From: Nitratidesulfovibrio vulgaris str. Hildenborough
GTDB lineage: Bacteria > Desulfobacterota > Desulfovibrionia > Desulfovibrionales > Desulfovibrionaceae
NCBI RefSeq assembly: GCF_000195755.1
Contig: NC_002937.3
Span: forward strand, 1,620,001 to 1,652,000
Direction of reading: 5' to 3'
DNA length: 32,000 bases
In this document: positions 6,312 to 28,220 of the stretch, one piece after another
Layout of the letters: the number at the start of each line of letters is the position of its first letter
Numbering within the stretch: the stretch's first letter is position 1
Position numbers and translations under genes: made by a program
The notes under the pieces: model-generated
Told to the model about the DNA's origin: nothing
What the model saw: only the letters and a program-made list of their open reading frames with translations
Database searches by the model: none

Positions 6312-6968
6312 TCATAACAGTGAAGGCAGGTCTTCAAGCGTCACATCAGCTTTTTCAAGATGCAAGGCTGACGACGGCCCGGTCATCGCCAGACCATGCA
6401 AGTGGCTGAAGCGAAAGGACATGAGGTCTTCGAGCCGTGTTCGTGTCAGGGTACAGGCAACGACCCGCAGGCAGCCCGCGTGGGTGATGCACACTGCTGG
6501 GCGTGGCCCTTGGGCCATGTGACGCACTGCCGTCATGACACGTCGCTGGACATCGGCGAAGGTCTCGCCGCCCGGAATCTTGAAGTGGGCCATATCGCGC
6601 CCGCGTCGGTTGTATTGCTCAGGTTCCCGCTGGCGTATGGAATCGAAGGTGCGCCCATCCCACTGCCCCATGTCGATTTCGTCCATGTCGTCGATGAGGT
6701 GGACGGTGCATTCGTCGAGGAGGGGGCCTAGCGTGTCGCGGGCGCGGCTGGCCGGGCTTGCATAGAGGGCGGCGGGTCGACATTGTCGCATGACTTTGCA
6801 CAGGGCGGCAGCCTGCCGCAGGCCTTCGGGCGACAGGGGTAACGGGGTACGCCCGATGGCACGCCCTTCTCCGCCTGTGGTGGCGGCGTGGCGCAGCAGG
6901 ATGACGGCGCGGCTGGCATTCTTTTCCGGGGTGTCAGTCGTCTCGAAGGCTGGAACGCCCACAGTCAT
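6312..6968 (-). CDS. Histidine phosphatase family protein (phosphoglycerate mutase / CobC-like branch)
   Basis: 218-aa ORF with the catalytic pattern VILLRHAAT...LYASPASRARDT...EIDMGQWDG...PGGETF...CITHAG. The AAGGAG RBS sits very close to the ATG, so the in-frame GTG at 6962 is an alternative start. Confidence 0.85.
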   Translation of the reverse strand: MTVGVPAFETTDTPEKNASRAVILLRHAATTGGEGRAIGRTPLPLSPEGLRQAAALCKVMRQCRPAALYASPASRARDTLGPLLDECTVHLIDDMDEIDMGQWDGRTFDSIRQREPEQYNRRGRDMAHFKIPGGETFADVQRRVMTAVRHMAQGPRPAVCITHAGCLRVVACTLTRTRLEDLMSFRFSHLHGLAMTGPSSALHLEKADVTLEDLPSLL

Positions 6969-7025
6969 GCTCCTTGATAGGGCTAGTGTCTTCCGGTGGC
7001 TGGGGGCCGGAGGTTCAGACCCTTG

Positions 7026-8453
7026 TCAGAACGTTCCCCGTCGGACTTTCCGTTGCAGCAGGGGAAAAAGCTCCGTAGCCGTCTCCGATTCGAAGAGGTC
7101 GCGCACCATGAGCACCCGTGCCTTGCGGGCTGCGATGTCACAAGCCACATCGGGCCTGTGGGCCCACTCCCGAAGCCGTTCGTCGAAGCGTTCCTCTACA
7201 GGAATGAGAGATACCCCCCGCACGTATTTGTCTGCCAGCATGACCAGCGCAGCCTCGTCAATCTCCGGTCCCGCCTGTGGTGCGATGTCGCGGTGCGCCG
7301 CGATGATGCTTCCGACTTCGGGAAAACCATGGCGCGTCAGCAGTGCACCTCCGGCGGCTTCATGGCGCTGTGTGCCCTTGCAGATGTCGTGCAGCGTGGC
7401 GGCAGCGTGGATGAGTGGCCTGTCGAGGCGTTGAGGCGAGGCGGTGGCGGCGGGGGCTTGCTGTGCGGCATCCCGCGCTGTTCCCGGCATGTGGTCCGGC
7501 ATGTGCCCCGGCTGGCACGTGGGCATGGGGCCCGTTGTCACGTCAGGGGGGGGGCATGCCACATGGGCTGTGGCGGTGTGCGGCAGGGTGGTGTTGCCTT
7601 CGGCATGCACCGCATGAGTCGTCGTGGACGCTGGTACGGAACGTGGTTCGGCGTGTGCCCCGGAAGTCGAGATGCCGTGCGGGGCGGACTGTCTAGCGAA
7701 CGGGCTGATGAAGCCGCGTCGTGTGGCTTCGAGGTGTGCCGCCATGGCCAGTGCGGCGCGGGCCACCATGCGGCAGTGCGCCCGGACTCTCGCAGGGGTG
7801 CCAGCCATCTCCAGCAACGCCTCTCGTTCCCGCGGAGTGGGAATGTGGCGCAGGGGATGGCGGGCAACCAGTTGCGCGTGGTCAGCCGGGGTGTCCATGT
7901 CGGTCACGATGCCTTCATCCGCAACGGCTACGTCGTGGGTGGTTCCGCCCTGACGCTCAAGGGCCAGAAGCACTCCGCGAAGCCCTCCATCACCGGAAGA
8001 GGCCAGCACGGCGCGCATGGTGTCTGCGTCGAGAAGCGGGGGGTGCCCACGTTCACCGCACAGCGTAGGGTACGTGACGGCGGCCCTGTGCCTGCGGAAA
8101 GCCTCGACCACGAGGGCACAGGTGGCCGTGCGCACGAATGGGATGTCGGCCGGCAGCACCAGTACGCCGTCCACCCGTCCGACGATATGAGCAATACCGG
8201 TTCGTACGGACGAGAACATGCCGTCCTGCGGGGTGGTGTTCTCTGCCGTCTCCAGTGAGAGGCGAAGTGCCTCTGCCGTGACGGCATCGCCATGGTGCCC
8301 GGTCACGACAACCAAAGGGCCGTTGATGGCCGGTAGAAGGGTCTTTGCCACATGGGCTAGAACGGTCGATGCGCCTAGCGGAAGAAGGGGTTTGCAGGCC
8401 CCCATGCGCTTGCCCTCACCCGCGGCGAGCACGATTGCACCTATCCGTAACAT
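7026..8453 (-). CDS. MobA/MocA-like nucleotidyltransferase fused to an HD-domain phosphohydrolase (probable Moco cytidylyltransferase-type enzyme)
   Basis: The N-terminus MLRIGAIVLAAGEGKRMGACKPLLPL...VLVLPADIPF matches the MobA/MocA NTP-transferase signature. The C-terminus has HD-domain elements (VRAHCRMVARAALAMAAH ... AATLHDICKG ... IIAAHRD ... LADKY). These are split by a ~100-aa His/Thr/Pro/Ala-rich insert. Start set at ATG 8453 (GAAGG RBS) rather than the track start 8525. Confidence 0.8.
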   Translation of the reverse strand: MLRIGAIVLAAGEGKRMGACKPLLPLGASTVLAHVAKTLLPAINGPLVVVTGHHGDAVTAEALRLSLETAENTTPQDGMFSSVRTGIAHIVGRVDGVLVLPADIPFVRTATCALVVEAFRRHRAAVTYPTLCGERGHPPLLDADTMRAVLASSGDGGLRGVLLALERQGGTTHDVAVADEGIVTDMDTPADHAQLVARHPLRHIPTPREREALLEMAGTPARVRAHCRMVARAALAMAAHLEATRRGFISPFARQSAPHGISTSGAHAEPRSVPASTTTHAVHAEGNTTLPHTATAHVACPPPDVTTGPMPTCQPGHMPDHMPGTARDAAQQAPAATASPQRLDRPLIHAAATLHDICKGTQRHEAAGGALLTRHGFPEVGSIIAAHRDIAPQAGPEIDEAALVMLADKYVRGVSLIPVEERFDERLREWAHRPDVACDIAARKARVLMVRDLFESETATELFPLLQRKVRRGTF

Positions 8454-8590
8454 GTAACCTTCTTCAGTAAAGATGGCGGGTTGCTGCATCTGCCGGTGGT
8501 CGTCGTGCCGATGTCCTGCTGCCACGACTGCCGCTGTCTGGTCATGGCTGTCTCCGGCGGGCCATAAGGTGCGTGACGCGGTATGACGCC

Positions 8591-9721
8591 TTACGCCGAC
8601 GCGCGGTGCATCACAAGCTCCGCCATGATGCTGATGCCAATCTCCTCAGGGGTTTGTGCCTGTATGTCAAGGCCGATGGGGCAATGACAGCGGGCGAGGG
8701 TGGCATCATCCAACCCTTGCTCTTGCAGTTCGGCATACAGTGCGTCCCGCTTGCGACGGCTGCCAATCATGCCGATGTAGCGTGCCGGAGTCTTGAGGGC
8801 CTGTTCGAGGATTTCACCGTCGTGCAGGTGTCCGCGTGTCATGATGACAAGATAGGTGTCGGGGGTGACATGCAGCCCGTCGAAGGCTTCGGCGAACGAG
8901 GGGGGGATGCGAAGGTGGGCGTCGGGGAAACGTTCGGGGGTCGCGAAGTCGGGACGGTCGTCGATGACGGTGACGGAGAATCCCACGGCATGGCCGAAGT
9001 GCGCCGTGGGCACCGCCACATGCCCTGCGCCGAAGATGACAAGGCGTGGCGGTGGCACCAACATGACGTCAAGGCGGCAGCCGGACTCGGAGAGGGCAAG
9101 CCCCGTAGACGCACCGGACAGGCGTTGCCCATCGCTGTCCTCACCGGTTGTATGGACGGCGGCGCGCATGGGGCGAAAGGTCTGGCGCGTGGTCGCCCTG
9201 CCTGAAATGTCTGCCTTGTCCAGCGCGTTCGCCCCATCCTGTCCGGATGGGGAGTCCCATACGTACTCCACACCGAATGACGCGGACAAGCCATCAGCAA
9301 CGCGGTCACATGCGTGCAGGAGAATGTCTGCCAGCCCCTTGCCATGCCCTGCGCTGCATCCTGTCTGTTCTCCGGTGTGGCATCCGTTCACGTTGTCGTG
9401 GCAAGCCCCGGCATGTTCGATGATCACCGTGAGATGACCTCCGCAGACCATGGCTGCTTCGGCTGCCGTGGTGTTGTCGAGGGCGAAGGCGCAGAACAGG
9501 GCGCTACCGGGTGGTCTCTGCAGGAGGTCTCTTCCGGCTTCGATGCAACGGGCTTCGACCAGACCACCGCCGATGGTGCCGAGGATGGAACCGTCGGGGC
9601 GAATCACCATCTGCGCGCCATCGCCACGGGGGGTGGAACCGCTGTGGTTGGCGATGGTCGCCATGGCGATGCTCTCGCCTGCTGAGAGGATGTCGCGAAG
9701 GGATTCAAGGAACGTGCTCAT
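8591..9721 (-). CDS. xdhC: XdhC/CoxI-family molybdenum-hydroxylase cofactor-insertion chaperone
   Basis: MSTFLESLRDILSAGESIAMATIANHSGSTPRGDGAQMVIRPDGSILGTIGGGLVEARCIE matches the XdhC N-domain. The C-terminal Rossmann part reads PRLVIFGAGHVAVP...IGMIGSRRK. Start at ATG 9721 (AAGAGG, 7-nt spacer), 17 nt after the upstream stop. Confidence 0.85.
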   Translation of the reverse strand: MSTFLESLRDILSAGESIAMATIANHSGSTPRGDGAQMVIRPDGSILGTIGGGLVEARCIEAGRDLLQRPPGSALFCAFALDNTTAAEAAMVCGGHLTVIIEHAGACHDNVNGCHTGEQTGCSAGHGKGLADILLHACDRVADGLSASFGVEYVWDSPSGQDGANALDKADISGRATTRQTFRPMRAAVHTTGEDSDGQRLSGASTGLALSESGCRLDVMLVPPPRLVIFGAGHVAVPTAHFGHAVGFSVTVIDDRPDFATPERFPDAHLRIPPSFAEAFDGLHVTPDTYLVIMTRGHLHDGEILEQALKTPARYIGMIGSRRKRDALYAELQEQGLDDATLARCHCPIGLDIQAQTPEEIGISIMAELVMHRASA

Positions 9722-9738
9722 GGGGTTGCCTCTTGCTG

Positions 9739-11088
9739 TCAGGAAGAAGCCTGACAACGGGTTGCGATACGTCGTTTTGCAAAAAGCGTTTCGGGTGGAA
9801 GATGGTCGCGCGCTGCCACGCGAAGTTCGAGCGTGCCAAGGCGCATGGCGCGGGCTATGGGGCTGGCGGTCGAGAGAAGGCGTGTCAGTATGGCGACCGA
9901 CTCTTCCCGGGCGGTCATGGTCGGGCCGAGGCGGGGGATGTCACCACGAAGCAGCACGTCAACGGCAAGCACTGCGGGGGCGTCTTCGTGCAGGCAGGCC
10001 CGGTATTCGACCACATCGGGCAGGCCAAGCAGGCATTCGTCAAGGTCTATGAGTCGTAGGGGCGTACCATCCGGCAACAGGCGTTCGTCGGCCAGTCGGC
10101 CGGGTACGAGGTCTATGCGGCGCTGAGGGCTTCCACATGGGCATGTGCCCGGCAGGATGCGCCCACGGTCTCCCGTGCGGTAGCGTATGAGGGGCATGGC
10201 ACGCCTGTCGAGCGTGGTCACGACCAGTTCCCCCCATGTGCCATCCGGGAGCGGAACCCCGCTTACGGGGTCGGTGACCTCGACCAGCAGATCGTTTTCG
10301 CGTAGGTGCATTCCCGCTTCGCCGCAAGAGAGGGCCCCCCCCATGCCGGTTTCGGTCATGCCCCAGTGGTGGCGTACTTCGCAGCCGAGGGTCTCGGCAA
10401 GGAGCGCACGGAGTGCGCGTGGTGCCGCGTCCCAGCACAGGAGTACGGTCGAGATGGCTCCCGATGGGAACCCTGCCCGGTGCCATGCGAGGGCGAACTC
10501 CCTGACATGCAACGGTGAGCCTACCACCGCCCGCACACCCTCGCGGTGTGCCATGTCTGCGATGCTGTCCCATCCATGTTCCGGTGATGCGGAGAGGGGG
10601 CGCACACCGACGCGACCTGCCGCCTCGCCCAGAAGACGTCCCACGCTGGCAGGGCGTTCGGCAGGCAGAAGTGCCAGTAGCGCCTCTCCGCGCTGCATGA
10701 ACGAGAGCAGCCCGTGCGAGAAGAACGTGATGGTGTTCTCGATATCTTCTGCGGTGCAGAAGACGCGCTTGGGCGGCCCCGTACTGCCGGAGGTGTCGAA
10801 GGTCACCGCCCGCGCCACGTCATCCTGTGAGACGCAGAGCAGCTTGAGAGGCGCTTCGCGAAGAATGTCTGCCTCCATGAAGGGCAGACGGGCGAGGTCG
10901 TGACGGCTGTACAGCGAGGATGCAGCGATGCCCGCCAGCCTTTCAGCATGATAGGGCGAGTGCCGGGCATGTTCGAGGGTAGCCCGCAATCGCTCCATCT
11001 GCCAGCGTTCCAGTGCCGCCGCATCGGGAGGGCTGTCGCACTTCATGCGTTCGGCAAGAAGGGCGTCGAGGGGTGCGAAACGGCTCAT
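9739..11088 (-). CDS. Adenylate-forming ligase of the phenylacetate-CoA ligase / coenzyme F390 synthetase (PaaK-like) family
   Basis: 449-aa ORF. AMP-binding motifs TSGSTGPPKRV, WGMTETG and YRTGDRG, plus the PaaK-type N-terminal helical region (LERWQMERLRATLEHARHSPYHAERL). The start ATG overlaps the upstream stop (ATGA at 11085-11088). Confidence 0.85.
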   Translation of the reverse strand: MSRFAPLDALLAERMKCDSPPDAAALERWQMERLRATLEHARHSPYHAERLAGIAASSLYSRHDLARLPFMEADILREAPLKLLCVSQDDVARAVTFDTSGSTGPPKRVFCTAEDIENTITFFSHGLLSFMQRGEALLALLPAERPASVGRLLGEAAGRVGVRPLSASPEHGWDSIADMAHREGVRAVVGSPLHVREFALAWHRAGFPSGAISTVLLCWDAAPRALRALLAETLGCEVRHHWGMTETGMGGALSCGEAGMHLRENDLLVEVTDPVSGVPLPDGTWGELVVTTLDRRAMPLIRYRTGDRGRILPGTCPCGSPQRRIDLVPGRLADERLLPDGTPLRLIDLDECLLGLPDVVEYRACLHEDAPAVLAVDVLLRGDIPRLGPTMTAREESVAILTRLLSTASPIARAMRLGTLELRVAARDHLPPETLFAKRRIATRCQASS

Positions 11089-12719
11089 GTGCGCCCCCTG
11101 TACAGCGGGGTTCCATCAGCTGCGGTGCAGTTCCATGCGCAGAACGGTATGAGCGCGCCGTCCGTTGTCACGGCATGGATGCAGCACCCTTGCAGCCGTT
11201 CAAGGTCGAGGTTCCATGCATCCTGAAAGGCCATGGCCGAAATGGCGAACAGGTGCGTCGCCGCGCGTGCGAGAAAGCGGTCGAGGTCGTCACCAGCATG
11301 GTCGGGCCGTGGCTGGCCCGCAATTGCCGGAGACACGACGTCTGACGTGTCAGGCGAGATGTTTCGTGACGTGCCTGATGATACAGCCGTGGACGGCGCT
11401 GATGCGGCGTTGCCAGAGGGGGAGGGCGAATGTCCGCAGGGTGCTGCCGGGCACGAAGAGGATACGTCGGCATTCACGGAGGAAATGGGAGCGGTCATGG
11501 CGGCTGATGTCGTGCCGTCCGTGCCACATCCGCAGGCATCATGTACGGGGGCACCATGTCCGGGGGCTGCCCATTGCCGCCTGACGAAGGCACGGGCGGC
11601 AATGGCACCGTCGAGTGCCGGGTGTGCCGGTGGCGCAGACTCCGCGCGCGGGGCGGATACGCGCATCAGGGTTCCATCTTCACGGACGAGATAGTTGGCA
11701 TGGAACGAACACAGGGAATGCTCGCAACCGGGGGGAAGAAAGTCGACAACCTGTACCATGCCCGCCGTCTGTTCTTCGAGGCGATGCATCAGTTCAGGCA
11801 GGGTGATGCGGGCCGAGGGAGACGGGGCCCCCTGACATGAAGGGTGTCGACCGAAATGGCTCACAGGCTGGAAGTGCACCCCGCGTACAGCAGGGGCCAG
11901 CGACATGCCAAGACGGATGATGGCGCCCACGTCGTGGTCGTTGACGCCGGGAACGACCGTGGGAACGAGCACCACCCCCACTCCGGCTTCTCCCAGCGCG
12001 TCGATGGCCCTGCGTTTGTCGTCCAGCAGCGGGGCACCCCGCAGTGCCTCGTGGATATCCTGTGATGTTCCGTCGAACTGCAGGAACACCGAATCGAGCC
12101 CCGCCCTTGCAAGGTCATGCGCCAGAGAGGGCTGACGGCCCAGCAGAATGCCGTTGGTGTTCAGCTGTACGAACGGAAAGAGACGCCTGGCATGGGATAC
12201 GATGTCGCAAAGGTCATGGCGCAGGGTGGGTTCACCCCCGGAAAGCTGGATGTTGCACGGGCCTGTCTTCTGCCGCACGGCTTCGAGAAGGGCTACGAGA
12301 GTGTGGAGGGGCGGGTCGCCTACATGCGCAGATGGCTGCAAGGTCTGCGTCTCGTCGTCCTGCGCTGCGGCGAAGCAATAGCGGCACCGGAGGTTGCAGC
12401 GGGTGGTCACTTCGAAGACGGCGGTGCAGGTGTGCTGATTGTGCTGCGGGCATAGGCCGCAGTCGAAGGGGCAGCCCCTGTCTACTGTCCCAAGGGGCGC
12501 AGGGGGCGTCGGGAGTTTGGGCCGAAGCCATGTCGACATGTCCGGCCCGCCGCGCCAGACCGGCGTCTCTGTCCGGCCGTGTTCCGGGCATTCCTTGACC
12601 AGCCACACCTCATGGGATCGCTGCTCATATCGGGCGGGTATGCGTGCGAGGCATCGCGGGCAGAGGCTTTGCGTGTGGTGGACGACCCGGTATGGCTTCA
12701 TCTCTGTGTGCGCCATCAT
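11085..12719 (-). CDS. Radical SAM enzyme with N-terminal zinc-ribbon (same architectural class as archaeal MJ0619-type pterin C-methylases and Tes tetraether synthase)
   Basis: 544-aa ORF. Zn-ribbon CPRC...CPEHG, then GCPFDCGLCPQHNQHTC. Radical SAM triad CNLRCRYC (aa 108/112/115) and GGEPTL. Conserved C-terminal block FAISAMAFQDAWNLDLERLQGCCIHAVTTDGALIPFCAWN. An A/S/P/C-rich insert spans aa ~386-476. The start ATG overlaps the upstream stop (ATGA at 12716-12719). Confidence 0.85.
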   Translation of the reverse strand: MMAHTEMKPYRVVHHTQSLCPRCLARIPARYEQRSHEVWLVKECPEHGRTETPVWRGGPDMSTWLRPKLPTPPAPLGTVDRGCPFDCGLCPQHNQHTCTAVFEVTTRCNLRCRYCFAAAQDDETQTLQPSAHVGDPPLHTLVALLEAVRQKTGPCNIQLSGGEPTLRHDLCDIVSHARRLFPFVQLNTNGILLGRQPSLAHDLARAGLDSVFLQFDGTSQDIHEALRGAPLLDDKRRAIDALGEAGVGVVLVPTVVPGVNDHDVGAIIRLGMSLAPAVRGVHFQPVSHFGRHPSCQGAPSPSARITLPELMHRLEEQTAGMVQVVDFLPPGCEHSLCSFHANYLVREDGTLMRVSAPRAESAPPAHPALDGAIAARAFVRRQWAAPGHGAPVHDACGCGTDGTTSAAMTAPISSVNADVSSSCPAAPCGHSPSPSGNAASAPSTAVSSGTSRNISPDTSDVVSPAIAGQPRPDHAGDDLDRFLARAATHLFAISAMAFQDAWNLDLERLQGCCIHAVTTDGALIPFCAWNCTAADGTPLYRGRT

Positions 12720-13168: not shown

Positions 13169-13172
13169 GTGT

Positions 13173-14078: not shown

Positions 14079-14290
14079 TTGTCCTCCAGCAGGTGCTCCA
14101 CCTGTGCCATCTTGCCCATGGCGAGTTCTTCAGGAATGAAGACGGCGCCGCATGATGGACAGGCGGGAAGTTCCACGTTGAACCGGCTTCCCATGTATTC
14201 GAGTTCGACGGCGCACGGTTGGAGAGATTTCCCGCAGGGGGCGCAGCGTAGTCCGGAATAGGAGCCTTCAAGAACCTTCATGCTGCTCAT
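14075..14290 (-). CDS. Small zinc-ribbon protein (YgiT/MqsA-type dual CxxC finger)
   Basis: 71 aa: MSSMKVLEGSYSGLRCAPCGKSLQPCAVELEYMGSRFNVELPACPSCGAVFIPEELAMGKMAQVEHLLEDK. Strong AGGAGGG RBS. The ATG overlaps the upstream stop (ATGA at 14287-14290). Confidence 0.7.
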   Translation of the reverse strand: MSSMKVLEGSYSGLRCAPCGKSLQPCAVELEYMGSRFNVELPACPSCGAVFIPEELAMGKMAQVEHLLEDK

Positions 14291-16680
14291 TGTCGCCCTC
14301 CTGCATCAATGACGTGCATACGGTGGCACCATACGTTGCGGACAAGCGGCACACCGTCTGCGTCGATGGTGTAAGCGACCCAGTAGGTAACGACGACCGG
14401 ACGGAAGCAGGCGATACGCACCCCTTCGTCGTTTGTATCGTCAATCCAGCGACCCGACTGCATGGCGTGATGCAGCACCTTGCGGACGTCACTGTCGAGG
14501 ATGCGCCTTTCCTCCATGAGGGCTGCGGCCTTTTCGGTGTAGTGAACGGGAATCGACGCCCATGCAGGCGCGGGTTGGGCATCGGCGCTACGGCCTTTCA
14601 GACGTTCGCAGAGTGCGACCCTGTTCTCACGGCGTTGCGAATAGCCGGGTGCCGGGGGCGTGCAGTCCTCCAGCGTAGTGTCGGGCGTCGAGAAGAAGAG
14701 GTTCAGCATGTGCGCTGTGGGTGTACCGGCCTTGACCAGCCTGTCACGGCACATGGCGCAGTAAGTGACAGCGTGCGTTCCCATGGCGGAGAGACGTTCT
14801 GCCCGACCGCGGGTCAGCTTGTCGGCAAGGGGAGGGTTGGCCTCTGCGACCAGCCCGCCGAAGCCGCAGCATTCGGTGCGTTCCCGTGTAAGGGCCGGTT
14901 CGCGGTACTCCACGCCGAGGGCTACCAGTAGCGCCCGGACGGCATTGCGCAGGGGCTCGTCTTCACGAGTGCCGCACGGGTCGTGCAGGACGAGGTCCCC
15001 CTTCCACGGATGGGGAGTGCCGAAGGGCTCAAGACCGTGCTTGTCTGCCACTTCGGCCATCTTCTCCCAGAGAGTCTCGACGGGGATGTGCGGCAGTCCG
15101 TTACGCAGTGTCGTCGCGCAGGAGGGACATGCCGTGACCAGTATGGGGCGGCCCAGTTCTTCCCAGTGCGATTCGACGGTGTGCAGTGTGTCCTGATGCA
15201 GTTGTTCGCGCCCTGCCCAGTGCGCCGGGGCTCCGCAACAGTGGGCGAGCAGACCCACACCGCTACGCTTCGCATCGTCGATGGCGGGAAGCCATCGTTG
15301 CAGCCAGCACCACGTTGATTCGACAAGACCCGGTGCAGAGGCGGTAAGCTGGCATCCGGGAAAGAAGAGCCATGTGCTGTTCTGTTTCTCGGCTTCGTGG
15401 CGGGCGACGACGCAGGTCCCGCTGTTGGCGAAGGCCATGTCGCGCAAGGCGAATTCATGCGCCGAGGGGGGCATCTTGTCGCGGTGCACCATGCTGCGGC
15501 GCGCATCGAGGCAGAGTGCCCCCATGTCGAAACCTTCCGGGCATACGGTCGCGCAAAGGCCGCACATCATGCATGAGTCGATCATGGTGTTCGCCTGACG
15601 CGTACCCATGACGATGGATTCGTTGTTGTAGATGCGTCTGGCGTATTGCTTGGGATAGCCGCCGTACTCCGCCAGATAGGCGCAGTGACGGACGCATTCC
15701 ATACATTCGCAACGGATGCACCGTGCCGCCTCCCGGCGTGCTTCGTCAGCCGTGTACCCTTCGGGAGGTTCGACGACGGGAGACAGCGGTACGACATCGG
15801 CGAGACTTGTGAACAATCTGGCCGAGAAGACCCCTTCGCGTTCGCGTCCCGCGACGAGAGACACCTTCTGGAGAAAGCGTTCCATCGAGGTCGCGGCGCG
15901 TCGACCGAGTGCCGCCATCTCCACGGGGGAATGACCCGGTGCGGTTTCGTCCGGCCTCTCCGAATCCCCCGGTCGTGCCGGGGGTATTGCCGCGAAGACG
16001 CCGGGGGTGGCGGTGCCGAGAGTCACGACGTCGGGTGGCTGGTCTTCTTCGCAATAGAGAGGATAGGCCACCGGGGCGATGAATACCGCATGTCCAGATG
16101 CGCCCCACTCGTCGATGGCTTGGGAGGGCGGAAGGGGGCCCTCATGGATGGTGACGCCCATGCGCCGGAGGGTGTCGACCTCTTCTGCGAGGTGGGCTGA
16201 GAGCGTGTCGAGTATGGCATGCCCGGCTGGACGCCGTAACCCGTCCAGAATCGCTTCAGCGGTGGAGAGGGTGTGAAGTGCCACGGTGATGCCCTTGCGG
16301 GACAGGTCCCACGCGGCAGCCAGCCCTGCAAGGTCGCCGCCGAGGATGACGGCATCAAGACCGCGACGGGGCATGGGCGGCGCGGGCGCAGGTCGCCCCG
16401 ATGCCTCGGCGCAGGCGCGCTCAAGTCCCGCGATATGCAGACCGCCTCCAGCCTCGTTCCGCAGGCAGGCGTTGCGGCATGGCTGGTCGCAGATACGTGC
16501 CAGCAGCGTGGGAAGCGGCAGCGTGCGGCAGAGTACGCCCCACGCCTTGCGGAGGTCGCCTTCCGCCATGTGTGTGCAGAAGGCCCGCACGTCGACATGC
16601 AAAGGACAGGCTGCACGGCACCGGGGCGGTTCCTCCTGCGTGCAGCGTGATTCCCACTGGCGTAGTTCGGACTGGTCCAT
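14287..16680 (-). CDS. Multidomain flavo/iron-sulfur oxidoreductase: GltD-type helical FeS domain, dinucleotide-binding domain, 2x[4Fe-4S] ferredoxin and two CCG (HdrD/GlpC-like) domains
   Basis: 797-aa ORF. N-terminus CRAACPLHVDVRAF...ICDQPCRNAC (glutamate-synthase small-subunit-type). GxGxxG-like VILGGDLAGLAAAWDL. Ferredoxin motifs CIRCECMECVRHC and CMMCGLCATVCP. CCG-type motifs FFPGCQ...CCGAP and LHDPCG...ECCGFGG. RBS GGAGAAGG before ATG 16680. Confidence 0.8.
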   Translation of the reverse strand: MDQSELRQWESRCTQEEPPRCRAACPLHVDVRAFCTHMAEGDLRKAWGVLCRTLPLPTLLARICDQPCRNACLRNEAGGGLHIAGLERACAEASGRPAPAPPMPRRGLDAVILGGDLAGLAAAWDLSRKGITVALHTLSTAEAILDGLRRPAGHAILDTLSAHLAEEVDTLRRMGVTIHEGPLPPSQAIDEWGASGHAVFIAPVAYPLYCEEDQPPDVVTLGTATPGVFAAIPPARPGDSERPDETAPGHSPVEMAALGRRAATSMERFLQKVSLVAGREREGVFSARLFTSLADVVPLSPVVEPPEGYTADEARREAARCIRCECMECVRHCAYLAEYGGYPKQYARRIYNNESIVMGTRQANTMIDSCMMCGLCATVCPEGFDMGALCLDARRSMVHRDKMPPSAHEFALRDMAFANSGTCVVARHEAEKQNSTWLFFPGCQLTASAPGLVESTWCWLQRWLPAIDDAKRSGVGLLAHCCGAPAHWAGREQLHQDTLHTVESHWEELGRPILVTACPSCATTLRNGLPHIPVETLWEKMAEVADKHGLEPFGTPHPWKGDLVLHDPCGTREDEPLRNAVRALLVALGVEYREPALTRERTECCGFGGLVAEANPPLADKLTRGRAERLSAMGTHAVTYCAMCRDRLVKAGTPTAHMLNLFFSTPDTTLEDCTPPAPGYSQRRENRVALCERLKGRSADAQPAPAWASIPVHYTEKAAALMEERRILDSDVRKVLHHAMQSGRWIDDTNDEGVRIACFRPVVVTYWVAYTIDADGVPLVRNVWCHRMHVIDAGGRQ

Positions 16681-16698
16681 GCCTTCTCCCCACGGTGT

Positions 16699-16731
16699 GC
16701 GGGCGGCACACCCGATGGATGTGCCGCCCGC
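16699..16731 (-). promoter_or_regulatory. 12-bp GC-rich stem-loop between mop and the downstream cassette (possible attenuator or mRNA-stability element; no U-tract)
   Basis: GCGGGCGGCACA (16699-16710) pairs perfectly with TGTGCCGCCCGC (16720-16731) around a 9-nt loop. It sits in the 70-nt gap between the mop stop (16751) and the next start (16680). Confidence 0.5.
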
Positions 16732-16750
16732 TTCATCTTTACGTGTCAGA

Positions 16751-19471
16751 TCATTTGCCCTGCAGACCTGCGAGCACCTTCTCGGGCAGCGCGGGCAGCC
16801 GCGTCACCCTCACCCCGCAGGCGTTGTGGATGGCGTTGATGATGGCCGCATGGGGGCAGGTGAGTGGCAGTTCGCCGACACCGCCCGCGCCGAAGGGGCC
16901 TTCGGGACGGGGCACTTCGACGTAGACGAGGTCGATCTCGTCCGGAATCTGCTTGATGTAGGGGAACCCGGCTCCCGGCATGGTCGAGTGCTTCTTGATG
17001 TCCTCGAAGTCCTCCGAAAGGGCGAGCCCTATGCCCTGCGCGATGCCGCCATACAACTGCCCGTCGACAGTCAGCCTGTTCACGATCTTGCCGATGTCGG
17101 CCACCAGGGTCATCTTGTCCACTGTGGTCTTGCCGGTGGCCAGTTCCACCGAGACCTCGGCAAGGAACACGCCGTACATGTACACGGCGAAGGGGCTGCC
17201 CTGACCCTCTGCGTTGCAGTCGGTGCAAGGGGCGGACCACTTGCCGCTGTACCGGGTGGCTATCTTCTCATCACGCATCTCGGCATAGGTGCGGAAGGTT
17301 CCGTCGGCTTTCCGCATCCCGCCCAGAAGGAGTTCGCAACCCGCCTTGATGGCGCGTCCGACAACGACCTGCGAACGGCTGCCTCCGGCAGGGCCTGCAT
17401 TGGGGCAGACCGCCGTATCGTTGAGGACAAGCCTGATGTTCTCGGGGGCGATGCCGAGGGGGCGCAGGGCTTCGTGGGCGGTACCCAGCGTACCCATGTC
17501 CGCACCCTGTCCGTGGTCGTGCCACGTGGCGAAGATGGTCACCGTGCCATCTTCGTTGAGTTCGACGGCGATCTCGGCCGTGTCCGGCCCGTCGAGACCG
17601 CAGCCGTATACGCCCACCGAGATGCCCACGCCCTTTTTCACCTCCGCCGTGGATTCACGCGCGGCCTTCTCCTTGGCGGCAAGGTAGCGCGGGCGGGCGG
17701 TGTCCAGCAACTCGGGCAGGCTCAAGACTTCGGGGACCTGTCCGGTGGGAGTGGTGGCACCTTCGCGGTAGACGTTGCGGTAACGCAGTTCAAGCGGGTC
17801 GATGCCCAGCTTCTCGGCGAGTTCGTCCATCAGCACTTCAGAGGCGAACTCGCTCTGTGGGGAACCATAGCCGCGGAAGGCCGACCCCCATGCATGGTTG
17901 GTGCACACCGTGCGGCCCAGACCGCGTATGCTCGGGATGTCGTAGCCGGCACCGATGAACTGCGCCCCGCGCAGCGTGAGCAGGTCGCCGAATTCCGAAT
18001 ACGGGCCGTGGTCGACCGACCAGTCGCTTTCCATGGCCAGCAGTTTGCCCTCACGGGTGGCCGCATAGCGCAGGTTGATGAAGAAGGGCGAGCGTTTGCC
18101 CGTGTATGTCTGTTGCTGGTACCACGAGTAGTTGAGGAACACCGGTCGCCCGGTCGCCATGGCCGCAGCACCGACGAGTGCCTCCATGGTGGGGCTGAAC
18201 TTGTAGCCGAAGGTGCCGCCCGTGGGGTTCTGCACCATGATGATGTTGTCGGGTTCGATGCCGAGACCTGGGGCGATCATGTACAGATGCAGGTGAAGGC
18301 CGATGGACTTGGAGTGGATGCACAGCTTGCCATCTTCATTGAAGAAGGCGAAGCCCACGTCGGGTTCGATGGGCATGTGCGGCTGGCGGCCCACATAGAA
18401 GTCGTCCTCGACCACGACATCCGCCTTGTCGAAGATGGGCTTCGTTTCCGGGCCCTTGACGAGGTGCTGCTCGAAATAGACGTTGGGTGTGCCGGGGTGG
18501 ATTTCCATGGCGTCGTCGGCCATGGCTGCTGGCGCGCTCATGTAGGCGGGTAGTACTTCAAGGTCTACTTTAACTGCCGCGGCTGCCGCCTTGGCGTGCT
18601 CTTCGGTGTCGGCGCAGACGATGGCGATGGCGTCCCCGTACTGGAACACCTTCTCATCGCAGAGGATGGGACGGTCCCACCCGTCGCCCTTGTTGGACGG
18701 GAAGGTGATAAGGCCGGTGATGCGGTTCTTGCCCTTGATGTCCTTGTGCGTGACGACCTTGAAGACACCGGGCATCTTCTCGGCTTCGCTGGTGTCGATG
18801 CCGAGTATCTTCGCGTGGGAGGCTTCGGCCTGAACAAGCGCGCAACGCAAGGTCTCCTCCGGCATCTTGATGCCAAGGTCGGCCCCGAAGTCGAGCGTGC
18901 CCGTAACCTTGGCGAGGGCGGACGGGCGGGGGTATTTGGTGCCCCAGATGCGACCATCGGCAGGGATGCGGTACAGCAGGTCGTCCACCTTCATTTCGCC
19001 CCGCACGACGGCGGCTGCGTCCATGACGGCGTCCACCAGAGGTTTGTAACCGGTGCAGCGGCAGGCATTACGGTGTTTCTGGAACCAGTCGCGGACATCG
19101 TCGCGGCTGGGCTTGGGGTTGGTGTCGATAAGAGCCTTGGCCGAGACGATGAACCCCGGCGAACAGAAGCCGCATTGCGCCGCACCATGGGCCATCCATG
19201 CCACCTGAAGCGGATGCAGGTTGTCCGGGGTGCCGATGCCCTCGAGCGTGGTGATGGTGGCACCCTCGGTGAGACGGCTCATCTTGTAGCTGCATGAGCG
19301 GACGAGCTTGCCGTCGACGATGACGTTGCAACTGCCGCAATGACCTTGCCCGCAGCCCACCTTCACACTGGTGAGGCCCAGGCTCTCGCGCAGGTAGGTT
19401 GCCAGTGTCGTGTCGGGGCGGGTGATTGCCATCCGGGGTGCTCCGTTGATCGTGACCATGCGTTTGATCAT
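16751..19471 (-). CDS. mop: Aldehyde oxidoreductase, MOP type (xanthine oxidase family; 2x[2Fe-2S] plus molybdopterin cytosine dinucleotide; no FAD domain)
   Basis: 907 aa from MIKRMVTINGAPRM...GCGQGHCGSCNVIVDGKLVRSC...GAAQCGFCSPGFIVSA...CRCTGYKP, followed by a large Mo-pterin-binding domain. Length and N-terminus parallel the Desulfovibrio gigas MOP protein. AGGAGG RBS 6 nt before ATG 19471. The 80-codon upstream extension in the ORF track (to 19714) has non-protein-like composition. Confidence 0.93.
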   Translation of the reverse strand: MIKRMVTINGAPRMAITRPDTTLATYLRESLGLTSVKVGCGQGHCGSCNVIVDGKLVRSCSYKMSRLTEGATITTLEGIGTPDNLHPLQVAWMAHGAAQCGFCSPGFIVSAKALIDTNPKPSRDDVRDWFQKHRNACRCTGYKPLVDAVMDAAAVVRGEMKVDDLLYRIPADGRIWGTKYPRPSALAKVTGTLDFGADLGIKMPEETLRCALVQAEASHAKILGIDTSEAEKMPGVFKVVTHKDIKGKNRITGLITFPSNKGDGWDRPILCDEKVFQYGDAIAIVCADTEEHAKAAAAAVKVDLEVLPAYMSAPAAMADDAMEIHPGTPNVYFEQHLVKGPETKPIFDKADVVVEDDFYVGRQPHMPIEPDVGFAFFNEDGKLCIHSKSIGLHLHLYMIAPGLGIEPDNIIMVQNPTGGTFGYKFSPTMEALVGAAAMATGRPVFLNYSWYQQQTYTGKRSPFFINLRYAATREGKLLAMESDWSVDHGPYSEFGDLLTLRGAQFIGAGYDIPSIRGLGRTVCTNHAWGSAFRGYGSPQSEFASEVLMDELAEKLGIDPLELRYRNVYREGATTPTGQVPEVLSLPELLDTARPRYLAAKEKAARESTAEVKKGVGISVGVYGCGLDGPDTAEIAVELNEDGTVTIFATWHDHGQGADMGTLGTAHEALRPLGIAPENIRLVLNDTAVCPNAGPAGGSRSQVVVGRAIKAGCELLLGGMRKADGTFRTYAEMRDEKIATRYSGKWSAPCTDCNAEGQGSPFAVYMYGVFLAEVSVELATGKTTVDKMTLVADIGKIVNRLTVDGQLYGGIAQGIGLALSEDFEDIKKHSTMPGAGFPYIKQIPDEIDLVYVEVPRPEGPFGAGGVGELPLTCPHAAIINAIHNACGVRVTRLPALPEKVLAGLQGK

Positions 19472-19509
19472 CAGGATCCTCCTGTAAGGAATGGTGGGCA
19501 TTCTCTGTC

Positions 19510-19539
19510 GGCCCGGAGAGTCGCACGACTCGGAGGGCC
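19510..19539 (-). promoter_or_regulatory. 30-bp imperfect palindrome or RNA hairpin in the mop leader
   Basis: Plus strand reads ggccc-gga-gagtc-gcac-gactc-gga-gggcc. As RNA on the minus strand it is GGCCC UCC GAGUC GUGC GACUC UCC GGGCC, i.e. 5+5 bp with a 3x3 internal loop. The CCUCC segment is complementary to the mop Shine-Dalgarno GGAGG, which lies about 50 nt downstream. Confidence 0.35.
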
Positions 19540-19589
19540 ACCGGTATGACGCTGTAGACCTCGCCCCGTGGGGCGTTTGCGGCGGGTGA

Positions 19590-20609
19590 CTACTTTCCGA
19601 ACGGGCACACCGGGTGGTGGCAGGTTTCGCAGCCTGCGCAGAATCCACCGTGTCCCAGGCTGGTGATGTCTCGCCTTGCCAGACGTTCCCCTGCCAGCAA
19701 TCGGGGGACGACAAGGTCGAAGATGCTCGCCCGGTAGTACATGACGCATCCGGGCAGACCGAGAACAGGGATGTCGTTCAGGTACGCCAGCATGAACATG
19801 ACCCCCGGAAAGGTCGGGGAACCGTAGGTGACCACCTCGGCACCCGTGGCGCGAATGGACGCCGGGGTCTGGTCGTCAGGGTCGACACTCATGCCGCCCG
19901 TCACCACGACCATGTCCGCCCCTTCACCGATGAAGGAGAGGATGGCGTCCCGTGTGGCTTCCGGCGCATCACCGACGAGGCGTTGCCCCATGACCGACGA
20001 CCCCAGCGCTGCGAACTTGTCACGCATGACGGGGCCGAACTTGTCCTTGATGCGGCCATGGAAGATTTCCGAACCGGTGGTGACGACGCCTATGCTGTGC
20101 GAACGCAGAGGTTTCACCTGTACGACAGGGTAGCTGGCGGCGCAGATACGCTCTACCTGCCGAATCTTCGATTCGTCGATGACAAGCGGTACGACCCGGG
20201 TGCCTGCCACGGCACGCCGCGCCGCGATGAACTGACCGCTGTGCATGGTGGCGAGGGCCACCTCATCGATGGCGTTGATGGCGTTCAACGCCTCGACGTC
20301 GACGCAGAGAAGCCCCGGCGATGCCATGAAGTTGATACGCCCCTCGGAGACCTCGGACAGCGATATGCCCGGTCCCGCCGCCGCAGTTGCTATCCGGAGG
20401 GCTGCTTCGTCCTCGTGTAGCTGGTGGGCTTCGAGGTTGAGCACATAGAGATGTTCTTTTCCGATGGAGAGAAGGAGGGGGATGTCCGCCTCGGTGACGA
20501 TGTGTCCCTTGCGGAAAGCGCGCCCCTTGTGTTCGCCCGGAACGATGCGGGTCAGGTCGTGGCAGAGGACGGTACCGACGGCTTGTTCGACAGGAATCGC
20601 TTTCATCAT
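19590..20609 (-). CDS. Molybdopterin-binding protein (MoeA N-terminal plus MoCF_biosynth domains) with Cys-rich C-terminal tail
   Basis: 339 aa. MMKAIPVEQAVGTVLCHDLTRIV... is MoeA-N-like. SIGVVTTGSEIFHGRIKDKFGPVM...ADMVVVTGGMSVDPDD is MoCF_biosynth-like. It ends GGFCAGCETCHHPVCPFGK (CxxCxxCxxxxC). Confidence 0.8.
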   Translation of the reverse strand: MMKAIPVEQAVGTVLCHDLTRIVPGEHKGRAFRKGHIVTEADIPLLLSIGKEHLYVLNLEAHQLHEDEAALRIATAAAGPGISLSEVSEGRINFMASPGLLCVDVEALNAINAIDEVALATMHSGQFIAARRAVAGTRVVPLVIDESKIRQVERICAASYPVVQVKPLRSHSIGVVTTGSEIFHGRIKDKFGPVMRDKFAALGSSVMGQRLVGDAPEATRDAILSFIGEGADMVVVTGGMSVDPDDQTPASIRATGAEVVTYGSPTFPGVMFMLAYLNDIPVLGLPGCVMYYRASIFDLVVPRLLAGERLARRDITSLGHGGFCAGCETCHHPVCPFGK

Positions 20610-20839: not shown

Positions 20840-21211
20840 ATGAAGCAGGAACGGTTCAAGCTTCGCCTCAAGCTATGGATTGACGCCGATGGCGAGAACG
20901 CCTTCGGCCCGGGCAGTGCCGCATTGCTCAAAGGTGTGGAGGAAACGGGGTCTCTGGCGGGCGCCGCCCGGGCGCTCGGGATGTCATACCGTGCCGCCTG
21001 GGGCAGGGTGCGCAAGATAGAAGCCCGCCTCGGCGAGGCGGTTCTACGGAAGCGAGGCGGAAACAAGGCGGGCTACGAGTTGACTGCCCGCGGGCATGCC
21101 ATGCTCGTTGCCTATGAGGCGCTGTTCGAGGAAATGGATACCCTTGCTCAGGCGAGATTCCAGGAGCTTTTCGCCAGTCCAGAATCTGCCGGCAGGGTTA
21201 GGGACGAGTGA
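20840..21211 (+). CDS. ModE N-terminal-domain-type winged-HTH regulator lacking Mop/TOBE molybdate-binding domains
   Basis: MKQERFKLRLKLWIDADGENAFGPGSAALLKGVEETGSLAGAARALGMSYRAAWGRVRKIEARLGEAVLRKRGGNKAGYELTARG matches the ModE/LysR-type HTH domain. At 123 aa there is no room for di-Mop domains. Start set at ATG 20840 (GGAG, 5-nt spacer) rather than GTG 20807. Confidence 0.8.
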   Translation: MKQERFKLRLKLWIDADGENAFGPGSAALLKGVEETGSLAGAARALGMSYRAAWGRVRKIEARLGEAVLRKRGGNKAGYELTARGHAMLVAYEALFEEMDTLAQARFQELFASPESAGRVRDE

Positions 21212-28218: not shown

Positions 28219-28220
28219 CG

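Follow-up and report, generated by a model that had tools for sequence, protein, structure and literature searches.

A portable gene core linked to molybdenum and tungsten pterin enzymes of three superfamilies, seen from the mop locus of Nitratidesulfovibrio vulgaris Hildenborough

Introduction

The closest described systems to the locus treated here are the aldehyde oxidoreductases MOP of Desulfovibrio gigas and AOR of D. desulfuricans, together with the PaoABCD-style maturation of Escherichia coli. In a 32,000-nt stretch of Nitratidesulfovibrio vulgaris str. Hildenborough (NC_002937.3, 1,620,001-1,652,000; hereafter the window, with all coordinates counted from its first letter as position 1), an array of 11 minus-strand open reading frames (ORFs) at 6312-20609 likewise comprises a mop orthologue, an XdhC-family gene and a MocA-type gene, and differs from these systems in its six middle genes, an HD domain fused to MocA, a histidine phosphatase and a truncated MoeA-like protein. 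We know of no described molybdenum cofactor (Moco) pathway that uses the six middle genes. Here we report a two-way link between a portable core of this array and three superfamilies of Mo/W-pterin enzymes, and we discuss the tentative idea that the core may mature and wire a dedicated redox partner for these enzymes.

Nine of the 11 genes, running from AOR to the DVU_1551 nucleoside triphosphate (NTP) transferase, exceed the curated cut-off of their own dedicated NCBIfam model (NF045645, NF045646 and NF045663-NF045669, the DVU_1551-DVU_1559/TrsS neighbourhood), and the neighbourhood has therefore already been catalogued by curators. The window is essentially alike in content to what was catalogued, with the radical SAM (S-adenosylmethionine) enzyme TrsS in a cysteine form bearing a low-complexity insert and with DUF7479 as a separate gene, and its gene order matches that in M. 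gigas, Nitratidesulfovibrio termitidis, Desulfocurvibacter africanus and Desulfobacter curvatus. Curators have named the neighbourhood, but the family models give no function. A first-pass annotation, made from the letters of the window, had given the family names DVU_1557, DVU_1556, DVU_1555, DVU_1553 and DVU_1551 and had described the middle genes as lacking an assigned function; the names are correct, all five models passing their cut-offs, the curated family models indeed assign the middle genes no function, and NCBIfam and Pfam profiles uphold every gene identification made there.

A full-text literature search found no mention of DVU1551-1557. DVU1559 is listed in a proteome table solely as 'Aor, ethanol metabolism', and the supplements of that study do not include DVU1552-1558. 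A table in a 2026 review credits TrsS to Haft and Tolstoy (2025, mSystems 10:e0141724). What we add is the three-layer anatomy of the array, a previously unannotated domain (domain X), the -LEDK tail of DUF7479, two TrsS cysteines whose positions can carry selenocysteine (Sec), and partner enzymes other than MOP. At least 572 species carry the cassette; these are strict anaerobes, among them sulfate reducers, Geobacter, acetogens, syntrophs and Anaerolineae. As two textbook enzymes, D. gigas MOP and Geobacter metallireducens BamB, are tied to this unexplained cassette, part of their biology is missing; the tie is direct for MOP, the cassette standing beside mop in M. gigas, and is drawn for G. 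metallireducens from the published bamB2 cluster.

Distribution of the core and its linkage to Mo/W-pterin enzymes

The array is built of three layers, namely mop with the hairpin that follows it, a set of genes for supply and insertion of molybdopterin cytosine dinucleotide (MCD), and a portable core consisting of domain X, DUF7479, a methyltransferase, a C_GCAxxG_C_C protein, TrsS and a PaaK-like ligase. The genes of the core, preceded by mop and the FeS/CCG protein that carries domain X, are as follows.

16751-19471, minus strand: mop/aor, MOP-type Mo (MCD) aldehyde oxidoreductase (NF045668, 1698 bits against a cut-off of 1100)
14287-16680, minus strand: FeS/CCG protein, an NAD(P)H/FAD (GltD-like)-2x[4Fe-4S]-2xCCG (HdrD-like) oxidoreductase (NF045663 'diclust_near_Sec', 868 bits against 530)
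14299-14553, minus strand: domain X, residues 710-794 of the FeS/CCG protein (~85 aa), without a Pfam model and previously unannotated
14075-14290, minus strand: DUF7479, DVU_1557-family Zn-ribbon protein of 71 aa (NF045645, 102 bits against 60; PF24292)
13173-14078, minus strand: DVU_1556-family class I SAM methyltransferase (NF045667, 231 bits against 155; Methyltransf_11/25)
12716-13168, minus strand: DVU_1555-family C_GCAxxG_C_C Cys-rich protein, hereafter GCAxxG protein (NF045669, 157 bits against 103; PF09719)
11085-12719, minus strand: TrsS radical SAM enzyme, Cys form (NF045646, 600.8 bits against a cut-off of 490, residues 15-541)
9739-11088, minus strand: DVU_1553-family PaaK-like adenylate-forming ligase (NF045666, 399 bits against a cut-off of 300)

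TrsS relatives were sought in one genome per species and found in at least 572 stretches, the best 80 of which were used for counts and compared with the eleven window proteins by tblastn. These 80 loci belong to Desulfovibrionales, Desulfobacterales, Geobacter, Acetobacterium, Desulfotruncus, Pelotomaculum and Anaerolineae, and also to Actinomycetota, Spirochaetia, an epsilonproteobacterium, Sterolibacterium and Telmatospirillum. TrsS is present in all 80, the ligase in 78, the GCAxxG protein in 76, DUF7479 in 71, the methyltransferase in 66 and the FeS/CCG protein in 60, followed by mop (58), XdhC (55), the NTP transferase-HD fusion (48), the histidine phosphatase (44) and the MoeA-like protein (42). 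Order and strand are near-constant across these loci, and no pair is more constant than TrsS and the ligase. The first-pass annotation had taken the six middle genes as one cassette; its core genes do travel together, but the six are not one unit, since the FeS/CCG protein goes with mop (60 and 58 of the 80 loci, and none in the loci with BamB-type enzymes described below) and just its last ~90 residues, domain X, are part of the portable core.

The linkage to Mo/W-pterin enzymes was complete in the loci where it could be read. All 59 loci with a full flank (at least 7 kb upstream of TrsS) contain such an enzyme, which is a mop orthologue in 53 and a different Mo/W-pterin enzyme within 10 kb in the other six, so that the link to Mo-hydroxylases that had been proposed for the cassette met no refutation in the co-occurrence test. 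In the reverse direction, an exact-protein look-up of MOP orthologues found the core directly downstream in six of six sampled, from M. gigas, an Acidobacteriota metagenome-assembled genome (MAG), Fretibacterium, N. termitidis, Desulfobacter curvatus and D. africanus; the D. africanus locus keeps the core and has no XdhC, MocA or phosphatase gene. Unbiased clustering of the remaining ORFs of the 80 loci showed each further gene to be limited to 12 loci or fewer. Extras that do recur are ABC transporter components, DUF364, an Fe-alcohol dehydrogenase with a sigma-54 two-component system, an aldehyde dehydrogenase and a CoxM-like FAD subunit. None of the clusters conserved with the core in the 80 loci represents a transporter, thioesterase or beta-oxidation gene, nor an ars, mer or selD gene.

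Partner enzymes other than MOP

In seven loci without mop (L008, L026, L028, L030, L031, L033 and L036 in our numbering), an AFOR-family enzyme and a ferredoxin adjoin the core, a pair that is 79-90% identical from locus to locus. This enzyme (L031:5773-8266) is of the BamB family, as it matches 4Z3W, the tungsten subunit of class II benzoyl-CoA reductase, over its full length with 1010 bits, compared with 210 bits for the aldehyde oxidoreductase of P. furiosus, and the ferredoxin beside it is BamC-like in all seven loci. The core thus stands beside a BamB-family W enzyme and a BamC-like ferredoxin in these loci, whereas the window itself has MOP. The flanks of L031 showed no BamDEFGHI genes, which encode the bifurcation module. 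In L030, the BamB-like gene comes directly after that of the ligase. The BamB/BamC-like pair probably corresponds to bamB2/bamC2 of G. metallireducens, where microarrays showed the bamB2 cluster (Gmet_1795-1810) to be induced on benzoate: bamB2 (Gmet_1802) 23.6-fold, bamC2 (Gmet_1803) >15-fold, an 'F390 synthetase-like' ligase (Gmet_1800) 5.6-fold, MoeA (Gmet_1804) 4.5-fold, a radical SAM gene (Gmet_1807) 2.6-fold and a molybdopterin oxidoreductase (Gmet_1810) 2-fold (PMC1924859). The ligase, the radical SAM gene and MoeA are features that this cluster has in common with the window, and from a layout matching that of L030 and L031 we infer that Gmet_1807 is TrsS.

A third kind of partner occurs in L024 (L024:3301-16229), where a flavodoxin, a CoxM-like FAD subunit and an unusual chimeric Mo/W enzyme directly precede the core. 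In the chimera, a xanthine oxidase-type [2Fe-2S] domain is fused to a catalytic subunit of the dimethyl sulfoxide (DMSO) reductase family, whose best solved relative is acetylene hydratase. The core of L024 is followed by genes for MoeA and for a MOSC-domain protein, and by one for an ArsS-like radical SAM plus DUF3641 protein. L031 contains, besides its BamB-type enzyme, a second X-DUF7479 gene directly before a formate dehydrogenase-like molybdopterin oxidoreductase, accompanied by MoxR/CoxE-type genes.

The core therefore accompanies three cofactor types, MCD-Mo, bis-molybdopterin (bis-MPT)-W and bis-molybdopterin guanine dinucleotide (bis-MGD), and what the three partner enzymes share is a metallopterin and very low potentials, not a substrate. 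The aldehyde/acid couple lies at -580 mV. The BamB W-cofactor has a potential of about -650 mV, and acetylene hydratase is active only once reduced to W(IV); BamB of G. metallireducens contains W-bis-MPT, highly like the other cofactors of the AOR/WOR family, with Cys and water as ligands (PMC12096430). A shared aldehyde step was considered as the link between core and partners and was dropped, the AFOR-family partner being of the BamB family and the DMSO reductase-type partner resembling acetylene hydratase. Pelobacter has aldehyde oxidoreductases of both the Mo and the W type as metabolic isoenzymes.

The FeS/CCG protein, domain X and DUF7479

The FeS/CCG protein has the Pfam domains Fer4_20, Fer4_17, Fer4_8 and two CCG, with an N-terminus like GltD/NfnB-type modules, and the combination of two CCG domains with a 4Fe-4S dicluster domain is that of the HdrD type. 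Domain X at its C-terminus aligns at 38% identity (E = 8e-14) with the N-terminal half of a 160-aa X-DUF7479 protein of the BamB-type locus L031, in which X lies at L031:8352-8651. It is present in 73 of 84 loci and is always directly upstream of DUF7479, the two being adjacent in 73-75 of the 84, and has invariant R, D, W and Y residues and an invariant H-R-M. Four of 26 members of domain X weakly match Pfam DUF4258 (best E = 1.4e-4), and a profile of the domain run against the PDB gave noise only. An AlphaFold2 model of a natural X-DUF7479 protein (pLDDT 90.6, pTM 0.84) yielded matches with a sensible root-mean-square deviation solely to RelE/HigB/HP0894 toxins, at a Foldseek probability of at most 0.94 and E = 0.1-0.3. 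On these weak scores, domain X looks like a RelE/ParE (BECR) fold.

DUF7479 is rare, with 208 clusters in 1.84 billion representatives, and in all but a handful of 150 listed representatives it is placed at the extreme C-terminus of the protein. Its tail is strikingly constrained: among representatives no more than 50% identical to one another, the terminal residue is Lys in 97%, Glu stands at position -2 in 97%, and the sequence LEDK is found in 107 of 148. In the window, the -LEDK codons are at 14078-14089 on the minus strand and that of the terminal Lys at 14078-14080. A model of DUF7479 alone predicts a Zn-ribbon core followed by a low-confidence tail, with a single helix before -LEDK, and the best fold match is the N-terminal Zn-binding domain of the antitoxin MqsA (probability 0.96, E = 0.013).

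Fusions of DUF7479 form a nested series, from GltD-FeS-CCG-X-DUF7479 through FeS-CCG-X-DUF7479, CCG-X-DUF7479 (as in N. termitidis) and X-DUF7479 to DUF7479 alone, and X-DUF7479 is hence physically coupled to CCG-type reductases. In L031, each of the two pterin enzymes has its own X-DUF7479, and the methyltransferase, GCAxxG protein, TrsS and ligase are present once. As an alternative function, the first-pass annotation had suggested that the cassette makes or recycles a thiol-containing small molecule, with the CCG-domain protein as a disulfide reductase; the repeated fusion of DUF7479 to the C-termini of CCG-domain reductases lends this suggestion partial support.

Natural DUF4258-MqsA fusions, with the toxin-like domain followed by the antitoxin-like one, have been described, and DUF4258 is a toxin family of the RelE/ParE superfamily (PMC11980606). 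X and DUF7479 resemble the two parts in the same order, X being RelE-like and DUF7479 like the Zn-binding N-domain of MqsA. Unlike that system, DUF7479 lacks the helix-turn-helix (HTH) DNA-binding domain, and the pair, always embedded in the cassette, is not an autonomous two-gene module. Taken together, three weak converging signals make X-DUF7479 resemble a toxin-antitoxin pair that was domesticated, with loss of the HTH and gain of a conserved Lys tail. Since it resides in a metabolic operon, is fused to reductases and keeps strict synteny across phyla, it would be a domesticated scaffold and not a toxin-antitoxin system. A LysW-type carrier offers a likeness of logic only, because the DUF7479 tail ends in Lys and not in Glu, and the ligase is of the ANL/PaaK type and not an ATP-grasp enzyme.

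TrsS and its accessory enzymes

The nearest characterised relative of TrsS is the Tes tetraether lipid synthase GDGT-MAS (MJ0619), whose structure 7TOL is its best PDB match (E = 1e-68); against the Tes model NF045702, TrsS scores 314.9 bits, below the cut-off of 450. It has in common with GDGT-MAS the rubredoxin-type C-X2-C-X20-C-X2-H site, the auxiliary CX3CX2C plus His site, the radical SAM CX3CX2C motif and the C-terminal Cys region. The invariant residues are C20/C23/C44/H47, C83/C87/C90/H93, C108/C112/C115 and C512/C513/C527, so that TrsS keeps all four GDGT-MAS-type metal sites (motifs of PMC9433317), the C-terminal one by alignment alone. It differs in its context, which is that of Mo/W enzymes and not of lipid synthesis, in two extra cysteines, and in the middle third (residues ~331-482), which does not align to 7TOL. 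The Pfam label of its zinc ribbon, HMPTM, denotes a pterin C-methylase, a label that does not fit here given that the founding activity is uncorroborated: MJ0619 is a lipid C-C coupling GDGT-MAS, its pterin methylation was not reproducible, and the annotation was called incorrect (PMC9433317).

The two additional cysteines, Cys98 (12426-12428) and Cys332 (11724-11726), are invariant and specific to the family; C98 aligns to Ile in GDGT-MAS. Five Desulfobacteraceae loci (L002, L005, L006, L007 and L012) have an in-frame TGA at the C332 position ('PPG-U-ENxLCSFH'), and Fretibacterium (L084) has one at the C98 position (L084:6069), where the gene was called as two ORFs. With Cys at both recoding sites, the window protein is the Cys form of a '(seleno)protein'. 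No internal TGA was seen in the other cassette genes, all matches there being ordinary stop codons. As either member of the pair can be Sec, the sequences suggest that Cys98 and Cys332 are catalytic redox or nucleophilic residues, not cluster ligands. The window TrsS is 544 aa long, compared with about 450 aa in most relatives, and carries a Ser/Ala/Pro-rich low-complexity insert of ~90 residues (~386-478; 11286-11564) in the variable linker. A natural TrsS::ligase fusion also exists (P0080).

The closest structures to the ligase are the phenylacetate-CoA ligases 4R1L and 2Y27, and its P-loop TSGSTG at residue 99 is intact. Its scores against the PaaK equivalogs are far below the cut-offs (95.7 bits for TIGR02155, cut-off 646; 110.7 bits for NF041878, cut-off 700), as is that against coenzyme F390 synthetase (56.1 bits for TIGR03335, cut-off 458.7), and with PaaK it shares just the ANL fold and the P-loop. 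The methyltransferase has lineage-specific extensions, which in the window are a 48-aa N-terminal extension and a Cys-rich C-terminal insert, and at least one locus (L084) truly lacks its gene. For the GCAxxG protein, the search returned no solved relative, and the literature on GCAxxG proteins concerns other paralogues.

Operon layout, mop and the MCD-maturation genes

The array is one operon-like unit, real and not a chance arrangement. The description from which we started, of eleven co-directional minus-strand genes with four 4-nt overlaps and one 4-nt gap, agrees with the sequence at every coordinate: each ORF has one terminal stop, ATGA overlaps lie at 14287-14290, 12716-12719 and 11085-11088, a GTGA overlap lies at 14075-14078, and the 4-nt gap is at the junction of the methyltransferase and GCAxxG genes. 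The remaining spacers are 17, 57, 70, 118 and 137 nt. Shorter starts are favoured over the longer mechanical ORFs for mop (19471), the GCAxxG gene (13168), XdhC (9721) and the NTP transferase-HD gene (8453), because the NCBIfam alignments reach position 1 or 2 of the profile within the first 2-5 residues of these shorter forms. Dozens of genomes, spread over several phyla, share the gene order and strand of the array. Scans for terminators and promoters found no canonical intrinsic terminator or sigma-70 promoter within the array beyond chance. The features outside the core, in order of transcription, are the following.

19590-20609, minus strand: MoeA-like molybdopterin-binding protein of 339 aa, with MoCF_biosynth as its sole domain (PF00994, 86 bits) and a Cys-rich C-terminus
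16699-16731, minus strand: G+C-rich stem-loop, 19 nt past the mop stop, with a perfect 15-bp stem (-36.6 kcal/mol)
8591-9721, minus strand: XdhC-family Moco insertion chaperone (NF045664 'XdhC_rel_AOR', 404 bits against a cut-off of 350; XdhC_CoxI and XdhC_C)
7026-8453, minus strand: MocA-type NTP (cytidylyl) transferase-HD phosphohydrolase fusion (NF045665, 351 bits against 315; NTP_transf_3 and HD)
6312-6968, minus strand: histidine phosphatase, CobC-like, last gene of the array (TIGR03162, 120 bits, below the cut-off of 163)

Judged by sequence, mop is an orthologue of D. gigas MOP, matching 1SIJ/1VLB over its full length (1489 bits) and also D. desulfuricans 1DGJ, and it has all the features of the MOP type: two [2Fe-2S] domains, the hammerhead and MoCoBD_1/2 in Pfam, and no FAD domain. 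The hairpin after it, noticed in the first pass, is real (z = -5.1, with 0 of 200 shuffles equally stable). It has no U-tract, and the terminator scan did not call it. A strong stem-loop occurs at the same place in most of ~55 related loci that were folded, about a dozen of them with a U-tract, and is kept in position, not in sequence. The hairpin of the window is a probable attenuator or transcript-stabilising element, which probably keeps the downstream genes below the level of mop. With a hairpin or terminator after mop in most loci, mop would be in excess over the genes downstream, and this fits accessory roles better than those of stoichiometric pathway partners.

The MCD set consists of the MoeA-like MPT-binding protein, the XdhC chaperone, the MocA-HD cytidylyltransferase and the histidine phosphatase, and the first-pass view that the flanking genes serve MCD maturation is correct. 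The MoeA-like protein passes the cut-off of no NCBIfam model; its gene precedes mop in 42 of the 80 loci (53-76% identity) and is also found in the M. gigas, N. termitidis, D. africanus and Acidobacteriota MAG loci. XdhC is present in 55 of the 80 loci, and in Desulfobacter curvatus there is an XdhC::MocA::HD triple fusion (L086:20334-22481). The product of 7026-8453 matches the full 188-position MocA profile TIGR03310 with 125.8 bits, under its cut-off of 186, and is a MocA-like domain within the distinct DVU_1551 family that carries the HD fusion. The phosphatase occupies the same position in 44 of the 80 loci and in M. gigas. Among the scanned window ORFs there was no match to yqeB/yqeC/selD-type families, although no search was aimed at them.

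Possible function of the core

We tentatively propose, with a probability of roughly 0.35, that the core serves to mature and connect a dedicated redox partner of Mo/W-pterin enzymes, without modifying Moco. The reasons are the adjacency of X and DUF7479, the nested CCG fusions, the flexible Lys tail, the Cys/Sec pair of TrsS, and the linkage found in 59 of 59 loci and, in the reverse direction, in 6 of 6. Further points in favour are the separate X-DUF7479 of each pterin enzyme in L031, the TrsS::ligase fusion, the probable sub-stoichiometric expression of the core after the mop hairpin and the make-up and benzoate induction of the bamB2 cluster. We are aware of no cofactor modification reported for MOP. 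Likewise, none is reported for BamB (PMC12096430). In the proposed scheme, the pterin would be left unmodified, and the core would build and service a redox partner of enzymes working near -600 mV. X-DUF7479, of putative toxin-antitoxin descent, would dock on the electron-transfer subunit, which would be the CCG reductase in mop loci and the BamC-like ferredoxin in BamB-type loci. The ligase, using ATP, and TrsS, using SAM and its catalytic Cys/Sec pair on an unactivated C-H bond, would act with help from the methyltransferase and the GCAxxG protein, either to make a carboxylate-derived group of the thiol/disulfide type or to tailor the -LEDK tail of DUF7479. Their product may then be redox-cycled by the CCG reductase, and the result would be a mediator or activator between the Mo/W centre and NAD(P)H or ferredoxin. 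A more specific version, in which TrsS, the ligase and the methyltransferase install a prosthetic group on the Lys tail of DUF7479 or use that tail as a carrier, giving a lipoyl-like swinging arm or a private redox mediator cycled by the CCG reductase, seems to us quite improbable. The toolkit resembles those of the LplA/LipA/E3 lipoyl-lysine system and the HcgA-G set for the iron-guanylylpyridinol (FeGP) cofactor, with an adenylating enzyme, a radical SAM enzyme, a methyltransferase, an NTP transferase, Cys-rich helpers and a reductase, and the invariant terminal Lys of DUF7479 is a further likeness; this is an analogy only, without sequence homology.

Several points weigh against a dedicated redox partner. 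Four rearranged loci (L040, L043, L049 and L059) keep TrsS and the ligase and have no X, DUF7479 or GCAxxG gene in their flanks, so that, unless these genomes encode it at another site, DUF7479 cannot be the sole substrate. MOP has been purified as a homodimer and works with flavodoxin in vitro, which means that a dedicated partner is not obligatory, and radical SAM enzymes normally do without a private reductant. As BamB is normally an electron sink and MOP an electron source, the direction of the wiring must differ by host. The RelE-like and MqsA-like assignments are weak (Foldseek E = 0.01-0.3; Pfam E = 1e-4 in 4 of 26 members), and the mechanism is deduced wholly from genomic context and fusions.

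The core might instead act transiently on the Mo/W centre or the pyranopterin, through sulfido or selenido insertion, dithiolene repair or reductive activation, and leave no lasting atoms, so that crystals would look ordinary. This alternative is rather unlikely. It would account for the position of the core between the enzyme and Moco genes (XdhC/MocA, MoeA and MOSC in L024, and MoxR/CoxE-type genes in L031), for the metallopterin being the sole feature common to the partners, for the attenuated expression of the core relative to the enzyme and for the retention of the core beside mop even without XdhC in D. africanus, and the Sec/Cys chemistry of TrsS fits chalcogen transfer. Yet D. gigas MOP, in the work of Santos-Silva from 2009, is reportedly without need of a sulfido ligand, and to our knowledge the established chemistry of Moco requires neither a PaaK-type ligase nor a Tes-like radical SAM enzyme. 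One system would also have to serve MCD-Mo, bis-MPT-W and bis-MGD sites with different ligands, which in BamB and acetylene hydratase are Cys and water and not sulfido (PMC12096430), and the fusions join DUF7479 to CCG reductases, not to Moco-handling proteins. A lasting change to the cofactor, as in the decoration or repair of the pyranopterin favoured by the first-pass annotation, would take the form of covalent tailoring of the dinucleotide by methylation or nucleotidylation, and this is now largely refuted and highly improbable. What speaks for it are the nucleotide-handling genes (MocA-HD and histidine phosphatase) within the array, the precedent of F390-synthetase-type ligases, which nucleotidylate a deazaflavin, and the Pfam name of the TrsS zinc ribbon, which still refers to a pterin methylase. 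It is disfavoured because M. gigas has the cassette, with mop on its chromosome directly upstream of the FeS/CCG, DUF7479, methyltransferase, GCAxxG, TrsS, ligase, XdhC and phosphatase genes, and native crystals of its MOP (P0121, 100% identical to the crystallised D. gigas protein), solved by Romao in 1995 and Rebelo in 2001 (1VLB and others) and seen at 1.28 Å, reportedly hold plain MCD. It is disfavoured also because the claim of a pterin methylase activity for MJ0619, its precedent, was not reproducible and has been withdrawn (PMC9433317), and because the partner cofactors differ, the core also accompanying W-bis-MPT enzymes of the BamB-like kind, which have no dinucleotide, and an acetylene-hydratase-like enzyme; MocA-HD and the phosphatase are not found in the BamB-type or D. 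africanus loci, where the core persists.

A metabolic role for the core, as part of an aryl- or alkyl-carboxylate pathway, appears unlikely to us. In such a pathway, the Mo/W enzyme would supply or consume the substrate: MOP would oxidise an aldehyde to the acid, which the ligase would activate to acyl-AMP or acyl-CoA, BamB2 would reduce an aryl-CoA formed by the ligase, and the activated acid would be transformed by TrsS and the methyltransferase. Among solved structures, the ligase is indeed closest to phenylacetate-CoA ligases and to aryl ligases of benzoxazole pathways, the ligase gene adjoins the BamB-like gene in L030, Gmet_1800 is two genes from bamB2 (Gmet_1802) in a cluster induced on benzoate (PMC1924859), and TrsS and the ligase are the most invariant pair. 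Fe-alcohol dehydrogenase, aldehyde dehydrogenase and sigma-54 regulators recur near the core, as would suit such a pathway, and the Mo- and W-type aldehyde oxidoreductase isoenzymes of Pelobacter are metabolic. However, no reaction is common to the three partners, BamB being no aldehyde oxidoreductase and the third resembling acetylene hydratase, and Desulfovibrio species oxidise aldehydes and are not known to catabolise the aromatic acids further. The hairpin or terminator after mop speaks against stoichiometric pathway partners, and transporter, thioesterase and beta-oxidation genes are not conserved with the core. Very improbable, finally, is a role in metalloid or organometal handling, by methylation or detoxification of As, Se or Hg, that would shield arsenite-sensitive Mo/W enzymes. 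In its favour, the methyltransferase bears a weak likeness to ArsM-type enzymes (E about 1e-11), L024 has an ArsS-like radical SAM plus DUF3641 gene downstream, and TrsS is a selenoprotein in some lineages; the ArsM likeness is nevertheless confined to the generic Rossmann fold and far below the cut-off, ars, mer and selD genes are not conserved with the core, and the methyltransferase is dispensable in some loci.

If the core does provide a redox mediator, whether protein-borne or a small molecule, this would be a new cofactor class, could explain electron handling at about -600 mV, and would bear on the heterologous expression of MOP- and BamB-type enzymes for biocatalysis (acid reduction and arene reduction). 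A catabolic side pathway would instead represent new radical-SAM chemistry from the Tes lineage. These hypotheses are directly testable in the genetically tractable D. vulgaris Hildenborough (DVU1551-1559).

Neighbouring genes and composition

An outer-membrane transporter of the FadL/TodX family and a second class I methyltransferase are encoded downstream of the array, in convergent orientation, at 3964-6230 on the plus strand. The second methyltransferase matches the DVU_1556 family weakly (69 bits, below the cut-off), and neither gene is conserved with the cassette in other loci. Signalling genes flank the array at 2188-3813 (minus strand), 21270-24164 (minus strand) and 24419-27538 (plus strand), their products being a PAS protein with a CI-repressor-type HTH, a dCache/HD-GYP-type protein and a hybrid histidine kinase. 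A gene with a CI-type HTH is likewise found beside the M. gigas locus. The G+C fraction is 0.62-0.67 over 7000-20000, which covers the array, and 0.54-0.59 over 21000-30000 upstream of it, a difference that could reflect horizontal transfer or merely coding bias.

An Fe-dependent alcohol dehydrogenase is encoded near the array in L004, L010, L011, L018, L050, L057, L061, L067, L076, L078 and L086, often together with a GAF histidine kinase and a sigma-54 response regulator, and these neighbours are consistent with ethanol/acetaldehyde metabolism as the setting of MOP. In M. gigas, a nitroreductase gene is inserted between mop and the FeS/CCG gene (L081:12800-13414), and a HEAT-repeat protein follows the array in both M. 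gigas and D. africanus.

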